Shown one piece after another: positions 11,843 to 18,000 of a stretch of DNA of 64,000 bases. The notes below the pieces were generated by a model. That model was not told the origin of the DNA. It did not search any database and saw only the letters and a list, made by a program, of their open reading frames with translations. Source of the stretch: Burkholderiales bacterium (GTDB lineage: Bacteria > Pseudomonadota > Gammaproteobacteria > Burkholderiales > SG8-39); NCBI GenBank assembly GCA_049802235.1, contig JBARMB010000050.1:87577-151576 (forward strand). Direction: 5' to 3'. The position numbers and the translations under genes were made by a program. Position 1 is the first letter of the stretch; every line of letters begins with the position of its first letter.

Positions 11843-11885
11843 GCAAGAGAATCGAAGGGGTCGGAGTCACCCCTCAAGCACTAAT

Positions 11886-11912
11886 GGTCAGTGAGCTGAC
11901 CCCTTAGGTTTT
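11886..11912 (+). terminator. Candidate intrinsic terminator hairpin (GGTCAG-TGAG-CTGACC) after the DUF1761 gene
   Basis: A perfect 6-bp stem with a 4-nt loop at 11886-11901 is followed by CCTTAGGTTTT. The U-tract is short and interrupted. The hairpin overlaps the left direct repeat. Confidence 0.35.
11892..11903 (+). repeat. Left copy of the 12-bp direct repeat TGAGCTGACCCC flanking the island
   Basis: Identical to 16604-16615. A second nearby near-repeat is GGGTCGGAGT (11858-11867) against GGGTCGGAAT (16595-16604). Confidence 0.7.
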
Positions 11913-11938
11913 GACAGGCCCAGTGAACAGAAAATAGT
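11911..11938 (+). promoter_or_regulatory. Candidate sigma70-type promoter for the island operon (TTGACA-N16-AATAGT)
   Basis: Perfect -35 TTGACA at 11911-11916 and a 4/6 -10 match at 11933-11938, about 55 nt upstream of ATG 11992 in an A-rich spacer. Confidence 0.3.
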
Positions 11939-11991
11939 GAAAAAAGTAAAAAAATAATAAGTAGTTCAGCGAAGTAGTGTAAGATTAAATA

Positions 11992-12246
11992 ATGATGCCT
12001 AATGCTCGACTCAAGGCCGTCACCCGTGAGGACGTCATTCGCGTCAGCAAGCGAATCGAACCAAAAACTATCCAGAAGTGGAGCGTTGTTGTAGGAAATA
12101 AAGAGTTTCCTATTAAACAGATTCTAATGGAGGCAGCAAATAGCATTACTTCCTCTGCTCCTCGTGTTACGCCTGCAGATTTCATCACCCATTCCGCAGT
12201 AAGCCGCCTCAAGACGCTTGGGTTTGCGGTTCGGTACTCCGAATGA
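11992..12246 (+). CDS. Small (84 aa) protein resembling the N-terminal putative DNA-binding module of McrB/HNH-type restriction proteins
   Basis: The pattern VTREDVIRV...KWSVVVGNKEFPIKQILMEAAN...TPADFITHSAVSRLKTLGFAV matches a module I recall at the N-termini of many type IV restriction/HNH proteins (itrEdv..., y.l...gk.yP.K.i...A, ...f.....a...L..LGF.v). No clear SD sequence. Its stop overlaps the next ATG (ATGA). Confidence 0.55.
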   Translation: MMPNARLKAVTREDVIRVSKRIEPKTIQKWSVVVGNKEFPIKQILMEAANSITSSAPRVTPADFITHSAVSRLKTLGFAVRYSE

Positions 12247-13589
12247 GAACTCAGAAGCGCTCGACAGTCGAGCTGTCGGATCTGCTAAGCGATTGCGATA
12301 ATCTAGCTCGGCGGTTTGTGGTGGAGGACAGAACTCGAGAGTTCGGAAAATTTCTGACATTTGAGCCCAATCTTTCACGGCCGATTCATCGCTGGTACAA
12401 ATTCAAAGAAGGATTCTCTCAGGAGTTGGTTGATCGCCTCCTAACAGAATATCGGCCGCCTTCGGCGAAGACCTTGGCATTCTTGGATCCGTTCTCCGGG
12501 GTTGGCACCTCGCTGCTGGCTGCTGAGGGGACATTGCGAAAGCTAGGGGCAAAGGAAATCCGAGTTCGTGGCGTCGAAGTAAACCCATACATGCACTTCG
12601 TGGGTAAGACTAAGCTGGACTGGCAACGTTACGATCCAGTCTTTCTCCGTCGCGCAGCTGCGGCCGCTACGAATGGGCTGGCCTTAAGAAAGAAGCCATC
12701 TATCCCAGGTCTGTCTACGATAAGAGATGCTAGGTTCATCGATCCGAATGACCTACAGAGAATCCTCGAGCTCCGAGACAAGGTCAAAATGGTTGCGCAG
12801 GGTCGTCCTGAGGTTCGCCCCCTGCTTCTTGGTCTTGCGGCTGGCGCAGAACGCATTTTCAATCTGCGGAAGGACGGTCGTGCTCTCCGTTTTACGCCTC
12901 GAGAGGGCGGCAAAAGCGTTGACGAGGAAATCGAGTGCGCATGGAATGATATTTCTGAAGATCTGCAGCTCAATGTTGAGAGGTCACCAGCTGACTGGAA
13001 GCTTGCAAAAGGCGACGGACGAAGAGTCGATCGGATATTCAGCCACGAAAAATTCGACGTAATCCTCTTTTCTCCTCCTTATCTGAATAACATTGATTAC
13101 ACCGAAGTCTATAAGATCGAGCAGTGGCTTTTGGGATTTCTGAATAGCAGTCCCGAGATGGTTGCTCAGCGCAAGCGAACCTTTCGCAGTCATCCGAGTT
13201 GTATATTTCCCGACTATCGAGACGCCAATACGGAGGAGGTTGTCAACATTCTGGGCGCGCCATTTCGGCGATTACTTGAATACGCTTCCCGCGAAGAGAA
13301 TTGGCGTCGCCGACTCTTTACTGGTTACTTCGCCGATATGTATAGGACGCTGTTAGCAAGCCGAAGGCTGCTCAAGCAGAGCGGTCGAGTATTTCTCATA
13401 GTAGGGAATTCCGTGCACGGAACGCCGGATCGTCCGATCCCTATTGCCGTTGATCTTTGGATCGCGAAGCTCGCTAAGGCAGCGGGCCTACGTGTGGAAT
13501 CTATTCTAGTTGGCCGATTGCTCTCGAGGCGACGCATGGAGTGGAATGGATTTCGTGAATCGATCATAGTCATGTCGAAGGCGACCTAG
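12243..13589 (+). CDS. Putative DNA methyltransferase (N4-cytosine or N6-adenine; SPPY catalytic motif)
   Basis: AdoMet motif I-like LDPFSGVGTS (aa 81-90, nt 12483-12512) is followed by GVEVNP. Catalytic motif IV is ILFSPPYLNNIDY (SPPY at nt 13071-13082). Motif I precedes motif IV by about 190 aa. VFLIVGNS lies near the C-terminus. Confidence 0.75.
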   Translation: MRTQKRSTVELSDLLSDCDNLARRFVVEDRTREFGKFLTFEPNLSRPIHRWYKFKEGFSQELVDRLLTEYRPPSAKTLAFLDPFSGVGTSLLAAEGTLRKLGAKEIRVRGVEVNPYMHFVGKTKLDWQRYDPVFLRRAAAAATNGLALRKKPSIPGLSTIRDARFIDPNDLQRILELRDKVKMVAQGRPEVRPLLLGLAAGAERIFNLRKDGRALRFTPREGGKSVDEEIECAWNDISEDLQLNVERSPADWKLAKGDGRRVDRIFSHEKFDVILFSPPYLNNIDYTEVYKIEQWLLGFLNSSPEMVAQRKRTFRSHPSCIFPDYRDANTEEVVNILGAPFRRLLEYASREENWRRRLFTGYFADMYRTLLASRRLLKQSGRVFLIVGNSVHGTPDRPIPIAVDLWIAKLAKAAGLRVESILVGRLLSRRRMEWNGFRESIIVMSKAT

Positions 13590-13591
13590 CT

Positions 13592-15535
13592 ATGGCACTC
13601 AGCAAGAAGGACAGCTCCCTTCGATTCGAAGCTAGCGCCAGACTACAGCGATTGTTCGGCCGCGAGCTTATTCCGGACGATGACTCAGCGGTAGAAGAGT
13701 TGACCAAGAACGCATATGACTCTAATGCATCGGAAGTTACGATCACAATTGTTCGTCCATCTGGCGATCGGGATGGAGAAATAGAAATACGAGATAACGG
13801 CCTAGGCTTATCTCTTACAGAGTTCAACCGTGTTTGGATGCGGGCTGGCTATTCAGAGAAAGCCGGACAGCCGCTTCCAGGTACTGGGCGAGTTCAGGTT
13901 GGTGAAAAAGGAATCGGGCGTTTCGCGGCAGATAAACTTGGCCGACACCTAATTGTGCTAACGAAGCCTCGTGGGGCCCGCGAAGCGCTAAAGGTGACCT
14001 TCGACTGGAGAAAGTTCGAGAAGAAGAAACTGTTGCTCTCTGATATTTCCAATCCATATGAACATGTGGACGAGCCTTTGCTTCCGAAGGGCTCCTCCGG
14101 GACGATTCTTCGAATACGCGGCCTACGTTCCGATTGGCCCGACAAGGCCATAGAAGAAATGCGCCGTCGCCTATCGCGCCTTTTGAATCCCTACGACAAA
14201 GGGCAGACTTTCCGAATCGTTCTAAATGCGCCAAGCCGAAAGCTGAGTGGGCCTATCGTCGGGAGCGAGATCAAAAATGCTGACTTCGAATGGGAAGTCA
14301 CGAGGTCTGCGCAGGGCACTATCCGTATGAAGCGACGGAACCGCGTGCAACGCGGTATTCCGGAATGGAGCGACTGGGAATCAGTGCTCATAACAAAAAA
14401 GGGGTCGGTCCCGGAGCAGCAAGACTTTGGTCCTGTAAATGCCCGCTTCTTCTTCTTTGTAGACCGACCGAAGAAAGCAAATATTGGTGATGCTATACCT
14501 GGTGTGGCTATTTACCGTGATGGCATGCGAGTAGAGCCCGCGGGATCGAGTAGCGCGGACTGGCTAGGACTACTAGAAAAGCGGGCAAAGCGCGCTGGTC
14601 ATATGCCGTTAGTTCCTTCTAGACTCTTCGGCTTTGTCAAGATCAGCCGCGATGAAAATCCGGAGTTGCAGGACGCCACAAATCGGCGCGCTTTTGTACA
14701 CGGCCCGCAACTTGATACCTTTCGGCAATTCTTGAAGGACAGACTAAGTGAACTCGAGGCACAAGTCGAAAGTGAGGTTGCCAAGCCCCGGTGGGAAAAG
14801 TCAAAGCAGCTTAAGAGCCAGAAGCTTCTTCAGGCGCGCTACAACACGGTTAGCATCATGTCCCTTAGCTTGGCTCACGAACTTAGGCAACCACTTCAGG
14901 CTATACAGACGGCCTCGGAGAATATTCGTGATTATCTTAAGCAGAAAGGCATCACAATTGCAGAAGTGGACTCTGGGACCGATGTGATTAGAAGAAACGT
15001 GGCACGGATTGAAAAACACATTCAATTTCTGAAGTCACTGGGATCAGGGCGACAAGAACAGGAATCATTCGATGCTGTTAAGGCAGCAGAAGAGGTAATC
15101 GGAGTATTTGGCGGGGTTGCGGCGGCGCAGAACGTTCAGCTTGTCCGAGAAGGTTCACCAAAATCGATGGTACTCAGTAACCACGCGACATTCTTAGCCA
15201 CGCTTACGAATCTTGTCCTCAATGCATTACAGGCCATTGAGGGACAGGATGAACAGAAACCACATCACATTCAAATAAAATTCGAGGCTGGGCGGAAGCT
15301 CACTAAGATACGAGTAGAAGACGATGGGCCAGGAATACCAGAGGCGAACCGCACGAGACTGTTCAAGCGCCTAACGACCAGCAAGCAAGGAGGCATGGGC
15401 ATCGGTCTCATTGTATGGCGCGAGGCCTTGCAGATGTTTAGCGGCGAACTGGAGTGCGAAAGCTTTAGCGACCCAACAACGTTTGTTATAACAGTTCCCA
15501 CGGGGGTGCCGGATGGCTCGAGTTCTTCTGGTTGA
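13592..15535 (+). CDS. Fusion protein: N-terminal MORC/paraMORC-like GHKL ATPase plus C-terminal histidine-kinase core (HisKA and HATPase_c); no TM or classical sensor domain
   Basis: N-terminal Bergerat motifs are EELTKNAYDSNA (N40), IRDNGLGL (aa 66-73) and GEKGIGRFAADKLG (aa 104-117). The H-box is SLAHELRQPL (His429, nt 14876-14878). The second GHKL module has NLVLNALQAI (N-box), VEDDGPGIP (G1) and KQGGMGIGL (G2). No hydrophobic segments. Confidence 0.8.
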   Translation: MALSKKDSSLRFEASARLQRLFGRELIPDDDSAVEELTKNAYDSNASEVTITIVRPSGDRDGEIEIRDNGLGLSLTEFNRVWMRAGYSEKAGQPLPGTGRVQVGEKGIGRFAADKLGRHLIVLTKPRGAREALKVTFDWRKFEKKKLLLSDISNPYEHVDEPLLPKGSSGTILRIRGLRSDWPDKAIEEMRRRLSRLLNPYDKGQTFRIVLNAPSRKLSGPIVGSEIKNADFEWEVTRSAQGTIRMKRRNRVQRGIPEWSDWESVLITKKGSVPEQQDFGPVNARFFFFVDRPKKANIGDAIPGVAIYRDGMRVEPAGSSSADWLGLLEKRAKRAGHMPLVPSRLFGFVKISRDENPELQDATNRRAFVHGPQLDTFRQFLKDRLSELEAQVESEVAKPRWEKSKQLKSQKLLQARYNTVSIMSLSLAHELRQPLQAIQTASENIRDYLKQKGITIAEVDSGTDVIRRNVARIEKHIQFLKSLGSGRQEQESFDAVKAAEEVIGVFGGVAAAQNVQLVREGSPKSMVLSNHATFLATLTNLVLNALQAIEGQDEQKPHHIQIKFEAGRKLTKIRVEDDGPGIPEANRTRLFKRLTTSKQGGMGIGLIVWREALQMFSGELECESFSDPTTFVITVPTGVPDGSSSSG

Positions 15536-16013
15536 TGACGAGAAAGATATCCGTGACATGTTTCTCGATGCGCTGAAACTGCACGGACATCAAGTGGATG
15601 TTGCCGCCTCCGCTGAGGAAGCCATGAAGCGTGCTGCGAATCGAAGCTATGACGTTGCAATAATTGATTACGTTTTGCCGGACAAGCGTGGCCTGGATCT
15701 CTTGCAGGAATTGCGCCGCCGCCAGTCCTTCCTGAGAGCAATCATTATCTCCGGACAGATTGATCACGACGTGCTTGATGCCGGTGAACTTGAGAGGCAA
15801 CTGAAAGAGCGTATCGCGGCAGACCGCTATTTGCCGAAGCCCACCAGTATCGATAGTTTAGTTCGAGCGATAGAAGATGTTCTCAAACCCACGGCTGCCG
15901 GTGATTGGAAGCAGATGGCTGCCGCTGCCGTAGCAGCGCAAGGTGTTAAGACCAAGCACGTAAAGGACATGGATCGCGCACTACATAAAGCGCGCAAGAA
16001 GCGTAAAACATGA
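15513..16013 (+). CDS. Stand-alone response-regulator receiver (CheY-like) protein with a basic C-terminal tail
   Basis: The receiver-signature residues I looked for (acidic pair, phospho-acceptor Asp, Ser/Thr, Lys) are all present: VLLVDDE (D8, D9), IIDYVLPD (D52), IIISG (S80) and LPKP (K109). There is no output domain. The tail is ...HKARKKRKT. It overlaps the kinase gene by 23 nt. Confidence 0.85.
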   Translation: MARVLLVDDEKDIRDMFLDALKLHGHQVDVAASAEEAMKRAANRSYDVAIIDYVLPDKRGLDLLQELRRRQSFLRAIIISGQIDHDVLDAGELERQLKERIAADRYLPKPTSIDSLVRAIEDVLKPTAAGDWKQMAAAAVAAQGVKTKHVKDMDRALHKARKKRKT

Positions 16014-16492
16014 TCTACGTTCTGGATACGTGTGCCTTAATATGGGCCTATCGGGAAAGATCCAAGTTTTGTCGCCGTTGTCGATACATAATTAGCCACT
16101 GTCAAGGGCGCGTATACGTCGCAGAGATAACCGTTCTCGAGATTGTTAGCGCGCTAGGAAGGACACATCGACGCGGGACAATTACACTTGGCGAGTACTC
16201 GCAGGCTAATCGCAGGTTTTTGCGCGATGTTGCTTCAGGCGCACTGGTCGTTATGTCATTACCCAGTTCGGAATTTGTCGCGTGTCGGGATCTATTGCAG
16301 TTGGTCGGAATTGACGCGGGCAGAAATCTCCAAACCCAAGATGCGATGGTCGCTTATACCGCTCGCCGCCTAGCTCTTGAGCGTGGCGAGGTAGTAAGGC
16401 TGCTGACTAGCGACCGGCGTCTTGCGGCGATCGTTAAGGAGCTACCAATCTTCAAGAACCTCGTCATTTCTGAATACCTCAATCCCAACTAA
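16010..16492 (+). CDS. PIN-domain nuclease (VapC-like)
   Basis: MIYVLDTCALIW (D6), VLEIV (E44), TQDAMVAYTA (D111) and LLTSDRRLA (D135) form the four-acidic-residue PIN signature. The ATG overlaps the receiver gene's stop (ATGA). Confidence 0.8.
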   Translation: MIYVLDTCALIWAYRERSKFCRRCRYIISHCQGRVYVAEITVLEIVSALGRTHRRGTITLGEYSQANRRFLRDVASGALVVMSLPSSEFVACRDLLQLVGIDAGRNLQTQDAMVAYTARRLALERGEVVRLLTSDRRLAAIVKELPIFKNLVISEYLNPN

Positions 16493-16603
16493 CCCAGCGG
16501 AGAACAGAGAACAAGAATCAGCACTTCAACCGCCCGGAACTCTGCGCCAGTCGTGCTTCTTCAGCCTATTGCCGATGGCGAGTAAGTCTGCTTAGGGTCG
16601 GAA

Positions 16604-16632: not shown

Positions 16633-18000
16633 TTACTTACCCGCGGTTCTTTCCCGCAGCGTCACGAATTCTTCCGCCGCGGTGGGATGGATGCCCACCG
16701 TGGCGTCGAACTGCGCCTTGGTGAGTCCGGCCTTCACCGCGATGGCAATGCCCTGGATGATCTCCGGCGCATCCGCGCCCACCATGTGCGCGCCCACCAC
16801 GCGCTCGCTGGCGGCGTCGACGACGAGCTTCACCAACGTGCGCTCGTCGCGACCGGAGAGCGTGTGCCGCAGCGGCCGGAAGCTCGCCTTGTAGATATCG
16901 ACCTTGCCGAATTTCGCCATCGCCTTGGACTCGGTGAGGCCGACCGTGCCTATCGGCGGCTGGCTGAACACGGCGCTCGGCACGTCGTCGTGGTCCACCG
17001 GCGTTTCGCGTCCGCCGAAGAGCGTCATCGCCACGGCCGCGCCCTCGCGGATCGCCACCGGCGTGAGCGCGATGCGGTGGGTCACGTCGCCCACCGCGTA
17101 GATGCTGGCGACGCTGCTGCGGCAAAACCGGTCCACCACCACGCCGCCCGCGTCGTCCAGCCTGACGCCAACCTCCGCCAAGCCGAGACGCGCGGTGTTG
17201 GGCGTGCGGCCGGTCGCGTAGAGCACCGCGTCGCACTCGAATTTGCCGCCGGGGACGCCGCTCATGCTGACCTCGAGCGTGCCGTCGGCGCGGCGCGCGA
17301 TGCGCGACACCTCGCTCGCAAGCAGGATGCGCACGCCCTTCTTGCCCATCTCGTCGTGCAGGTGGCGGCGCACGTCGTCGTCGAACCCCCTCAGGATCTG
17401 CTCGCCGCGATAGGAAAGCGTGACCTCGGCGCCGAGCCCGCGGAAAATGCCGGCGAACTCCGCCGCGATGTAGCCGCCGCCCACCAGCAGCACGCGCCGC
17501 GGCAGCTCAGGCAATTCGAACGCCTCGTTCGAGGTGATCGCATGCTCGATGCCGGGGATCGCCGGCTTAGCCGGCCAGCCGCCGGTGGCGATGAGAATGT
17601 TTTGCGCCGTCACGCGGCGCCCGCCGATCGCCACGGTGTGCGCATCGAGCAGTTTCGCCGTGCCCTCGATCACGGCGACGCCCGCCTTGATAAGCGCGTC
17701 GGCATAAATGCCGGAGAGCCGCGCGATCTCGCGGTTCTTGTTCTCGATCAGCGCCGGCCAGGAAAACGACGCGCCCGCTACGGTCCAGCCGTAGCCGCGC
17801 GCGTCCTCCAGGTCTTCGGCGTAGTGCGCGGCATAGGCCAGCAGCTTCTTCGGCACGCAGCCGCGGATCACGCAGGTGCCGCCGATGCGGTCGTTCTCGG
17901 CGATCGCCACTCTCGCGCCGAACTGGCCCGCCATGCGGCTCGCGCGCACGCCGCCCGAGCCGGCGCCGATGGTGAAGAGGTCGTAGTCGAAACGCGTCAT
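16633..18000 (-). CDS. gor: Glutathione-disulfide reductase
   Basis: GAGSGGVRASR FAD motif, redox-active GGTCVIRGCVPKK, and a C-terminal GIHPTAAEEFVTLR dimer-interface His motif. Confidence 0.85.
   Translation of the reverse strand: MTRFDYDLFTIGAGSGGVRASRMAGQFGARVAIAENDRIGGTCVIRGCVPKKLLAYAAHYAEDLEDARGYGWTVAGASFSWPALIENKNREIARLSGIYADALIKAGVAVIEGTAKLLDAHTVAIGGRRVTAQNILIATGGWPAKPAIPGIEHAITSNEAFELPELPRRVLLVGGGYIAAEFAGIFRGLGAEVTLSYRGEQILRGFDDDVRRHLHDEMGKKGVRILLASEVSRIARRADGTLEVSMSGVPGGKFECDAVLYATGRTPNTARLGLAEVGVRLDDAGGVVVDRFCRSSVASIYAVGDVTHRIALTPVAIREGAAVAMTLFGGRETPVDHDDVPSAVFSQPPIGTVGLTESKAMAKFGKVDIYKASFRPLRHTLSGRDERTLVKLVVDAASERVVGAHMVGADAPEIIQGIAIAVKAGLTKAQFDATVGIHPTAAEEFVTLRERTAGK

Follow-up and report, generated by a model that had tools for sequence, protein, structure and literature searches.

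Within a 64,000-nucleotide (nt) stretch of DNA from a Burkholderiales bacterium (GenBank assembly GCA_049802235.1, contig JBARMB010000050.1, positions 87,577 to 151,576 of the forward strand; we call this whole stretch the window, and all positions below are numbered along it), a gene for a stand-alone, CheY-like receiver (REC) overlaps the gene for a VapC-type PIN nuclease. These are the last two of five genes on the same strand, which overlap or lie 2 nt apart between approximately 11.9 and 16.5 kb and form one tightly coupled operon. The core of the cassette consists of four genes, encoding a DNA methyltransferase, a soluble histidine kinase, the single-domain receiver and the VapC-type PIN protein. 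We refer to the five genes, in order, as g1 to g5; the receiver-PIN pair and the kinase gene that precedes it comprise the following features.

13592..15535, + strand: g3, cytoplasmic sensor histidine kinase of 647 amino acids (aa) with a predicted MORC-like sensor (Pfam HATPase_c_3, HisKA and HATPase_c)
13592..14701, + strand: aa 1-370 of g3, predicted GHKL ATPase and transducer, MORC/SMCHD1-like (Foldseek, conservation)
14705..15502, + strand: aa 372-637 of g3, signalling helix, dimerization and histidine phosphotransfer (DHp) domain and catalytic ATP-binding (CA) domain; the codon of H429 lies at 14876-14878
15513..16013, + strand: g4 (REC), stand-alone CheY-like receiver of 166 aa; ATG start, ending in HKARKKRKT
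15897..16010, + strand: C-terminal tail of REC, aa 129-166, with a DW motif, two extra helices and the basic end KARKKRKT (conservation, model)
16010..16013, + strand: ATGA start/stop overlap of REC and PIN, read directly from the sequence
16010..16492, + strand: g5 (PIN), VapC-type PIN nuclease of 160 aa; ATG start (Pfam PIN)

At the junction between the last two genes, aaaacATGAtctac, the ATG of PIN (16010-16012) overlaps the TGA of REC (16011-16013), and the start of REC in turn shares 23 nt (15513-15535) with the end of the kinase gene. The same 23-nt overlap of kinase stop and receiver start, unusually long and conserved, is found in at least 10 divergent related loci. An initial annotation of the locus, made from the letters of the window, had described a 166-aa CheY-like receiver ending in HKARKKRKT and joined to PIN by an ATGA overlap, and both the open reading frame (ORF) coordinates and Pfam agree with it. 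It had also remarked on the absence of a partner resembling AbrB, ribbon-helix-helix (RHH), MerR or Phd proteins; indeed, no such gene is present among the ORFs flanking PIN, where the upstream gene is REC and, on the 3' side, 140 nt separate PIN from a convergent gene of 455 aa.

The receiver has a conserved basic tail and no DNA-binding domain

REC matches the Pfam family Response_reg (E = 8.8e-18, aa 4-121). Among 34 homologues D9, E10, D52 and K109 never vary and at least 90% keep S80, and the protein has the acidic pocket, acceptor aspartate, Ser/Thr and lysine of two-component receivers; the D52 codon (gat) lies at 15666-15668. An AlphaFold2 model of REC has the canonical (beta-alpha)5 fold, with a predicted local distance difference test score (pLDDT) of 80 and a predicted template modelling score of 0.78, and a Foldseek search with this model retrieved receiver domains only. 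A PADLOC scan of REC gave matches to SduA, PD-T4-6 and PDC-M60 that were confined to the generic receiver domain.

The receiver domain is followed by a tail of about 38 residues, which in the close homologues has the pattern DW..A....VK.K.V..MD..L.K.RKK and is still recognisable in distant cassettes (loci L019, L023 and L025). In the model the tail forms two helices (132-143, 147-159) before it finishes in a disordered stretch, 160-166. Searches with the tail gave no match in Pfam or the PDB, with no winged helix-turn-helix (wHTH) or other DNA-binding family among the results, and REC has no DNA-binding output domain. The end of the tail carries a charge of +6 and the core of REC one of approximately -6.5. 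On the grounds of their adjacency and of the 23-nt overlap of their genes, the kinase g3 and REC are a putative cognate phosphotransfer pair.

The receiver stands where relatives of PIN have antitoxins

PIN matches the Pfam family PF01850 (E = 5.5e-10, aa 3-141). All 23 homologues compared have D6, E39, E44, D111 and D135, and the catalytic acids, and with them the conserved acidic active site of VapBC toxins, are retained. A sequence search of the PDB with the PIN profile gave marginal matches only, the nearest being the PIN protein PAE0151 (E = 0.49), and a tblastn search of PIN against 72,556 plasmids gave none. The family is rare: 5.8 billion sequences hold 29 of its clusters, and an exhaustive scan of 1.84 billion yielded 80 representatives at E <= 1e-10. 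GTG or TTG is the start codon of most cassette PIN genes, and for this reason they are often overlooked or cut short in public gene calls: in L107 the PIN gene (12407-12883) is not called, and in L106 (approximately 12416-12895) it is called as a protein of 123 aa. As a result, protein databases under-count the PIN family and the cassettes are under-annotated.

The nearest PIN relatives outside the cassette (E of approximately 1e-10 to 1e-13) belong to two-gene pairs, in which they lie behind AF2212-like proteins. As an outgroup we fetched 80 PIN loci from representative genomes (L114-L193), 78 of which were scored. An upstream ORF ends at the start of PIN in 71 of the 78, and AF2212-like, AbrB-like and RHH-like antitoxins are among the proteins encoded there. 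A common C-terminal motif, LExVRxxLSxIxGSLAxxIxxEREER, is found behind unrelated N-terminal domains in 56 of these 71 proteins. This is the modular build that is expected of antitoxins, and the motif is presumably the toxin-binding module. The initial annotation had placed the receiver in an antitoxin slot, and the outgroup speaks for this, since the closest relatives of PIN have classical small antitoxins at that very upstream position; as judged from these comparisons, REC occupies the antitoxin position in an evolutionary sense.

The proteins on the two sides of this comparison differ in charge. The cassette PIN proteins are basic, with a family median isoelectric point of 9.6 versus 7.9 for the outgroup PIN proteins, and the outgroup antitoxins carry a charge of -2 at their C-terminal end. 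An origin of the REC tail from an antitoxin C-terminus was also considered and was rejected at the level of sequence, an hhalign comparison of 34 REC tails with the C-termini of the outgroup antitoxins giving a probability of 2%.

The pair is conserved as part of a larger cassette

From metagenomes and metagenome-assembled genomes (MAGs) of several phyla we collected non-identical PIN loci of the cassette type, 26 in all: L033, L036 and 24 that were scored by profile. REC lies immediately upstream of PIN in every one of the 26. Adjacency of the two genes in homologous loci had been set as a test by the initial annotation, which it passed. Twelve of them have a REC-PIN junction of -4 nt and 4 have one of -1 nt, and in the others it ranges from +2 to +30 nt; the counts of 12 and 4 are the same over all 29 non-identical loci tabulated, of which 26 are of cassette type. 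A chance juxtaposition of REC and PIN was rejected because of this conserved synteny.

The conservation extends to the other core genes. In all 18 loci found by means of PIN, REC is the gene directly upstream, preceded by the kinase and the methyltransferase wherever the contig reaches; distant members with 37-42% kinase identity still have the order methyltransferase, histidine kinase, REC, PIN, and so do further MAG loci. What does not hold is the notion of a self-contained, toxin-antitoxin-like pair, also put forward in the initial annotation: wherever the contig reaches, REC-PIN never occurs without the methyltransferase and the MORC-like kinase. The hosts include Burkholderiales, Gemmatimonadota, Clostridia, Acidobacteriota, Chloroflexota and others, with the same gene order. 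This spread over many phyla, together with the contrast in guanine-plus-cytosine (GC) content described below, argues for horizontal spread of the cassette.

A soluble histidine kinase with a predicted MORC-type sensor

The kinase encoded directly upstream of REC combines two ATPase modules. Pfam assigns HATPase_c_3 to aa 32-160 (E = 1e-22), HisKA to aa 426-477 and HATPase_c to aa 537-637 (E = 8e-22), and the N-terminus matches the NCBIfam family of BbrUII/HgiDII restriction enzymes (E = 1.6e-19). In an AlphaFold2 model (pLDDT 80.8), a GHKL and transducer module (aa 1-370) is followed by one continuous helix, aa 372-451, which bears H429, by a second DHp helix (457-484) and by the CA domain (491-637). 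Foldseek matched the N-terminal half, over 400-466 columns, to the ATPase module of SMCHD1 (6mw7), to MORC3 (6o1e, 5ix2) and to MORC2 with DNA (9cdh), and the C-terminal half to HK853, YF1 and CpxA; for aa 372-637, sequence and fold matches in the PDB were to FixL/YF1, HK853 and NtrB.

Across 38 homologues the GHKL motifs of the N-terminal module are invariant (E36, N40, D43, D68, G70, G72, G104, K106, G107 and G109), as are the H, N, G1 and G2 boxes of the kinase (H429, E430, N544, D577, G581, G601 and G603); conservation is also high in the middle region, R309-R365. With HisKA and HATPase_c domains, invariant boxes and the corresponding fold matches, g3 has the characters of a class I histidine kinase. 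Because of its domains, conserved motifs, model and fold matches, we call it a MORC-sensor kinase, that is, a soluble kinase in which a MORC-type ATPase is predicted to serve as the sensor. A protein identical to g3 is on record from a Burkholderiales MAG, and there are more than 500 homologues at E <= 1e-10.

Other genes of the operon and the low-GC island

Upstream of the kinase the operon contains two further genes, and the whole cassette lies in an island of low GC content.

11850..16600, no strand: low-GC island holding the whole cassette, GC 0.51-0.53 versus 0.63-0.70 in the flanks
11911..11938, + strand: promoter-like site, TTGACA-16-AATAGT, 10 of 12 matches, within an AT-rich leader
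11992..12246, + strand: g1, SCO5918-like small accessory protein of 84 aa (NCBIfam SCO5918_fam, E = 2.2e-05, under the cut-off of that family)
12243..13589, + strand: g2, DNA methyltransferase of the exocyclic-amino type with an SPPY motif (PADLOC MTase_II; Pfam N6_N4_Mtase)

The methyltransferase is covered from end to end by the PADLOC model MTase_II (E = 2.6e-42) and also matches Pfam N6_N4_Mtase (E = 1e-4). In 12 homologues motif I (DPF.G.GT) is near-invariant, with D82, F84, G86 and T89 invariant, and the SPPY core of motif IV (aa 277-280) does not vary. According to the ORF coordinates, the first gene, g1, overlaps g2 by 4 nt. It is kept at the head of the operon in L001, L003/L004, L014, L018, L105, L106 and L107, all within the close clade; in distant cassettes it is absent or exchanged for other small genes (HTH_17 in L019). 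Its product, which has no PADLOC match, may be a control protein or regulator.

The promoter-like site ahead of g1 is the sole match to the consensus on the + strand between 11300 and 17000. We treat it as weak evidence, since shuffled sequence gives at least as many matches in total as the region does. On one side the island is bordered by the stop of a membrane-protein ORF (11842) and on the other by the convergent 455-aa gene (16633-18000); a search of these borders for a tRNA gene, an integrase or flanking repeats found none. Elsewhere, the neighbours of the cassette include a type I restriction-modification system with integrases, a BamHI-type restriction-modification system, a NACHT protein, ParB-methylases, and ArdC with an LmuB-like ATPase. 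A gene for an ArdC-N protein together with a convergent three-gene set lies beside the cassette in two independent loci, L194 (6097-9834, - strand) and L106 (12914-16691, - strand). In L194 the set includes a 666-aa protein that matches LmuB (E = 1e-13), and it may represent a Lamassu-like neighbour on a mobile element.

A wider superfamily of kinase cassettes

Kinases of about 25% identity and of the same architecture as g3 are encoded in approximately 575 loci of representative genomes. These sister cassettes contain a C5 or N6 methyltransferase, the kinase, a divergent REC-like protein of 200-400 aa and often a DNase, which is an HNH protein in the Pseudomonas fluorescens locus L054 and a methyl-directed restriction enzyme in L029 (PADLOC, E = 3e-48). 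One type among the cassettes L026-L104 encodes a REC-like fusion protein of 385 aa, behind which a gene for a methyl-directed restriction enzyme sometimes lies. Other types have a REC-like protein of 210 aa plus an HNH protein, or unannotated gene pairs (clusters c8+c6, c11 and c13+c14).

The L054 kinase and g3 are homologous along their whole length: an alignment of 421 aa has 30% identity (E = 2e-46), the kinase core aligns in addition, and the H-boxes of the two are aligned. We matched L054 by architecture to Ambrosia (AbrR/AbrA/AbrB/AbrC/AbrD), a validated five-gene anti-phage system of Pseudomonas in which every gene and the receiver aspartate are required for phage defence (bioRxiv 10.1101/2025.09.30.679545); it is through L054, and not through the published Abr sequences, that Ambrosia is compared with the cassette of the window. 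As judged by these sequence similarities, the cassette belongs to a superfamily of hybrids between restriction-modification and two-component systems that includes the Ambrosia architecture.

Proposed mechanism and alternatives

We consider it fairly probable that REC-PIN is the output end of a horizontally acquired restriction-modification/two-component cassette, most likely directed against phages or other invading DNA, and that phosphorylated REC controls PIN by direct contact. The initial annotation had proposed that a toxin-antitoxin-like pair had here become the output stage of a two-component pathway. The second part of the proposal is in good standing, because the gene directly upstream encodes a putative cognate kinase whose H, N, G1 and G2 boxes are intact, which makes a two-component output stage plausible; the toxin-antitoxin-like unit gives way to a cassette of four to five genes. 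REC is very probably the link between kinase and PIN, and it probably passes on a phosphorylation signal rather than acting as a plain antitoxin.

In the mechanism that we propose, the MORC-like module, probably together with the methyltransferase, would monitor DNA, for instance for unmodified or otherwise foreign molecules. The continuous helix would relay ATP-driven closure of this module to the core of the kinase, H429 would be autophosphorylated, and the phosphoryl group would be transferred to D52 of the receiver. The phosphorylated receiver, with its helical basic tail, would then alter its contact with PIN. The outcome could be either the release of an inhibited PIN, an antitoxin-like behaviour that we slightly favour, or the activation or recruitment of PIN. 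Once active, PIN might cut RNA, as VapC enzymes do, or the nucleic acid of the invader, and the infection or the infected cell would be stopped. A more specific form of this scheme is possible, and we put it forward tentatively: unphosphorylated REC would inhibit a VapC-like RNase as a replacement of VapB, the kinase with its MORC-type ATPase, acting together with the methyltransferase, would recognise foreign DNA and phosphorylate D52, and the freed PIN would stop translation. If this form is true, the sensing of DNA state would be tied to RNA-targeting abortive infection post-translationally, with no transcriptional step.

If control of PIN by phosphorylated REC is true, the cassette would constitute a complete histidine-aspartate phosphorelay whose end point is a separate nuclease instead of a fused effector or a transcription factor, and a signalling pathway would have taken over a toxin of a toxin-antitoxin system, a receiver having replaced the antitoxin. 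Its four small soluble proteins would also offer a test bed both for DNA sensing by GHKL ATPases of the MORC type and for the way in which single-domain receivers regulate partner enzymes.

Several of our results weigh against control by contact. We infer the contact itself, as we do the signal, the phosphotransfer, the polarity of the contact and the substrate of PIN. The end of the REC tail (+6) and PIN (net +7) are both basic, so binding of nucleic acid fits at least as well as mutual binding, and the tail has no detectable kinship with the toxin-binding motif of the outgroup antitoxins (hhalign, 2%). No natural REC-PIN fusion was found among 790 PIN relatives (from 1.84 billion representatives) or among approximately 60 close REC relatives. 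No PADLOC model matches PIN, and every example of the cassette comes from MAGs or metagenomes. Finally, the authors of Ambrosia propose transcriptional control by way of the wHTH of its receiver, and not control from protein to protein, and they find that methylation gives the phage no protection (bioRxiv 10.1101/2025.09.30.679545); because of the latter, the role of g2 here is uncertain.

Transcriptional control could in principle apply here as well, with phosphorylated REC switching the operon on through its basic tail or a partner, and PIN activity being set by the level of expression. The tail is helical and its lysine/arginine end could touch nucleic acid, and in Ambrosia, whose receiver has the wHTH, the methyltransferase and the HNH position are barely expressed before infection (bioRxiv 10.1101/2025.09.30.679545). 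We nevertheless hold this to be unlikely, given a tail of some 38 residues and two short helices that matches no DNA-binding protein in Pfam or the PDB, and given that PIN is co-transcribed and translationally coupled with REC and would therefore be made whenever REC is made. An autonomous toxin-antitoxin system, in which REC replaces VapB and stabilises the island while the kinase and the methyltransferase are unrelated neighbours, would account for a translationally coupled REC at the antitoxin position and for the classical two-gene pairs among the nearest outgroup PIN loci. It would leave unexplained why the pair never occurs without the kinase, why the methyltransferase is present wherever the contig reaches, and why the start of REC overlaps the kinase stop by 23 nt in at least 10 loci; moreover, REC has no DNA-binding domain for autoregulation and its tail is not detectably related to the antitoxin motif, and we regard such a system as very improbable.

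In Detocs (DtcA/DtcB/DtcC), phosphotransfer from a kinase to receivers drives a toxic defence effector; the effector is fused to a receiver of its own, and the stand-alone receiver DtcB is proposed to act as a buffer (bioRxiv 10.1101/2023.01.24.525353). By analogy REC might be a phosphate sink that buffers stray kinase activity, as DtcB would, with PIN working in a complex of kinase, methyltransferase and DNA without contact to the receiver, and mutation of the aspartate of the stand-alone Detocs receiver does render that system toxic. The Detocs signal, however, goes to the second, effector-fused receiver; the window has one receiver and no other phospho-acceptor, and a sink would for this reason leave the kinase without an output. 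The conserved tail of REC also suggests a specific partner, and we take a sink to be quite improbable. We are somewhat less sceptical of direct restriction, which we still rate as unlikely: here phosphorylated REC would recruit PIN to the complex of kinase and DNA, and PIN would cut the DNA of the invader, as the HNH and methyl-directed endonucleases would in the sister cassettes, where the gene after the REC-like gene encodes a DNase, namely HNH in L054 and a methyl-directed restriction enzyme in L029. It counts in favour of this reading that DNA is cleaved by some proteins of the wider PIN-like superfamily. Against it, PIN is placed by Pfam in the VapC-type family PF01850, the relatives nearest to it are the toxins in toxin-antitoxin systems, and the characterised VapC-type PIN members are RNases.

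Comparison with known systems

A search of the literature found no description of a cassette of methyltransferase, MORC-kinase, REC and PIN, and in the papers on related systems cited here neither a PIN output nor a receiver without output domain as the only acceptor is reported. With VapBC systems the pair shares a VapC-type PIN protein with four conserved acids and a small upstream gene joined to it by a start/stop overlap. The partner in the window differs in being a receiver, with neither a DNA-binding domain nor the LExVRxxLSxIxGSLAxxIxxEREER motif, and PIN is much more basic. The autonomous two-gene module and the upstream antitoxin with an N-terminal DNA-binding domain that characterise VapBC have no counterpart here, the pair being embedded in a four-gene cassette and the upstream protein being a receiver.

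Detocs is likewise a defensive two-component relay that includes a stand-alone receiver protein. It differs in having no methyltransferase and in combining a receiver-fused effector with a separate buffer receiver, an arrangement not seen here, where the window has one receiver and a separate PIN and no fusions were found in the family. The sensor of Detocs is reportedly of the TPR type. In VcSduA and in BbrUII/HgiDII, a nuclease with a role in defence or restriction is under the control of an N-terminal GHKL ATPase that belongs to the same Pfam family as that of g3; the Shedu protein VcSduA (paraMORC3) demonstrates that control of a defence nuclease by a GHKL module is possible (PMC12137116). 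In these proteins the nuclease is fused to the GHKL module, whereas in the cassette a kinase core and a predicted phosphorelay would connect it to a separate nuclease.

The domain composition of g3 resembles that of two groups described, by bioinformatic means, from restriction-modification operons. ParaMORC ATPases, among them paraMORC1, were found in such operons (Iyer et al. 2008, PMC2292703), and proteins combining HATPase_c_3, HEF_HK and HATPase_c, accompanied by Response_reg_2, were described as elements that resemble two-component systems and are associated with restriction-modification (Bellieny-Rabelo et al. 2021, PMC8011034). The likeness lies in the three-part soluble kinase, in the receiver-type gene directly downstream, in the methyltransferase alongside and in the nucleases nearby, and g3 has the GHKL motifs and the transducer of MORC and paraMORC proteins next to a methyltransferase and a nuclease. 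Those elements differ in their divergent DHp domains and receivers and in their mainly C5 methylases, with Vsr and HNH nucleases and no mention of PIN, while in the window the profile matches of the DHp domain and of the receiver are to the canonical HisKA and Response_reg, respectively. At E <= 10 neither HEF_HK (PF19191) nor Response_reg_2 (PF19192) matches g3 or g4, and the likely members in L054 and L028 are also unmatched. The two models are silent even on proteins of the published architecture, and they are either absent from the Pfam copy used or much narrower than described.

The cassette resembles the recently described Ambrosia. Both are five-gene operons with a small regulator-type gene, a methyltransferase, a soluble kinase, a receiver and a nuclease in this order, and in both the kinase has an extra N-terminal ATPase of the GHKL/HSP90-like type. 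They differ in the first gene (XRE in Ambrosia, SCO5918-like here), in the methyltransferase (N6_Mtase versus N6_N4_Mtase with SPPY), in the receiver, which has a wHTH in Ambrosia and a helical basic tail of 38 aa in the window, and in the last gene, which encodes a type IV HNH protein there and a VapC-type PIN here. The hosts differ as well, being Pseudomonadales for Ambrosia and soil and sediment MAGs of many phyla for the present cassette. The cassette would thereby extend the superfamily of Ambrosia and paraMORC kinases to many soil phyla, and the output stage of this superfamily appears to be modular, consisting of an HNH protein, a methyl-directed endonuclease, receiver fusions or, as in the window, a PIN nuclease.

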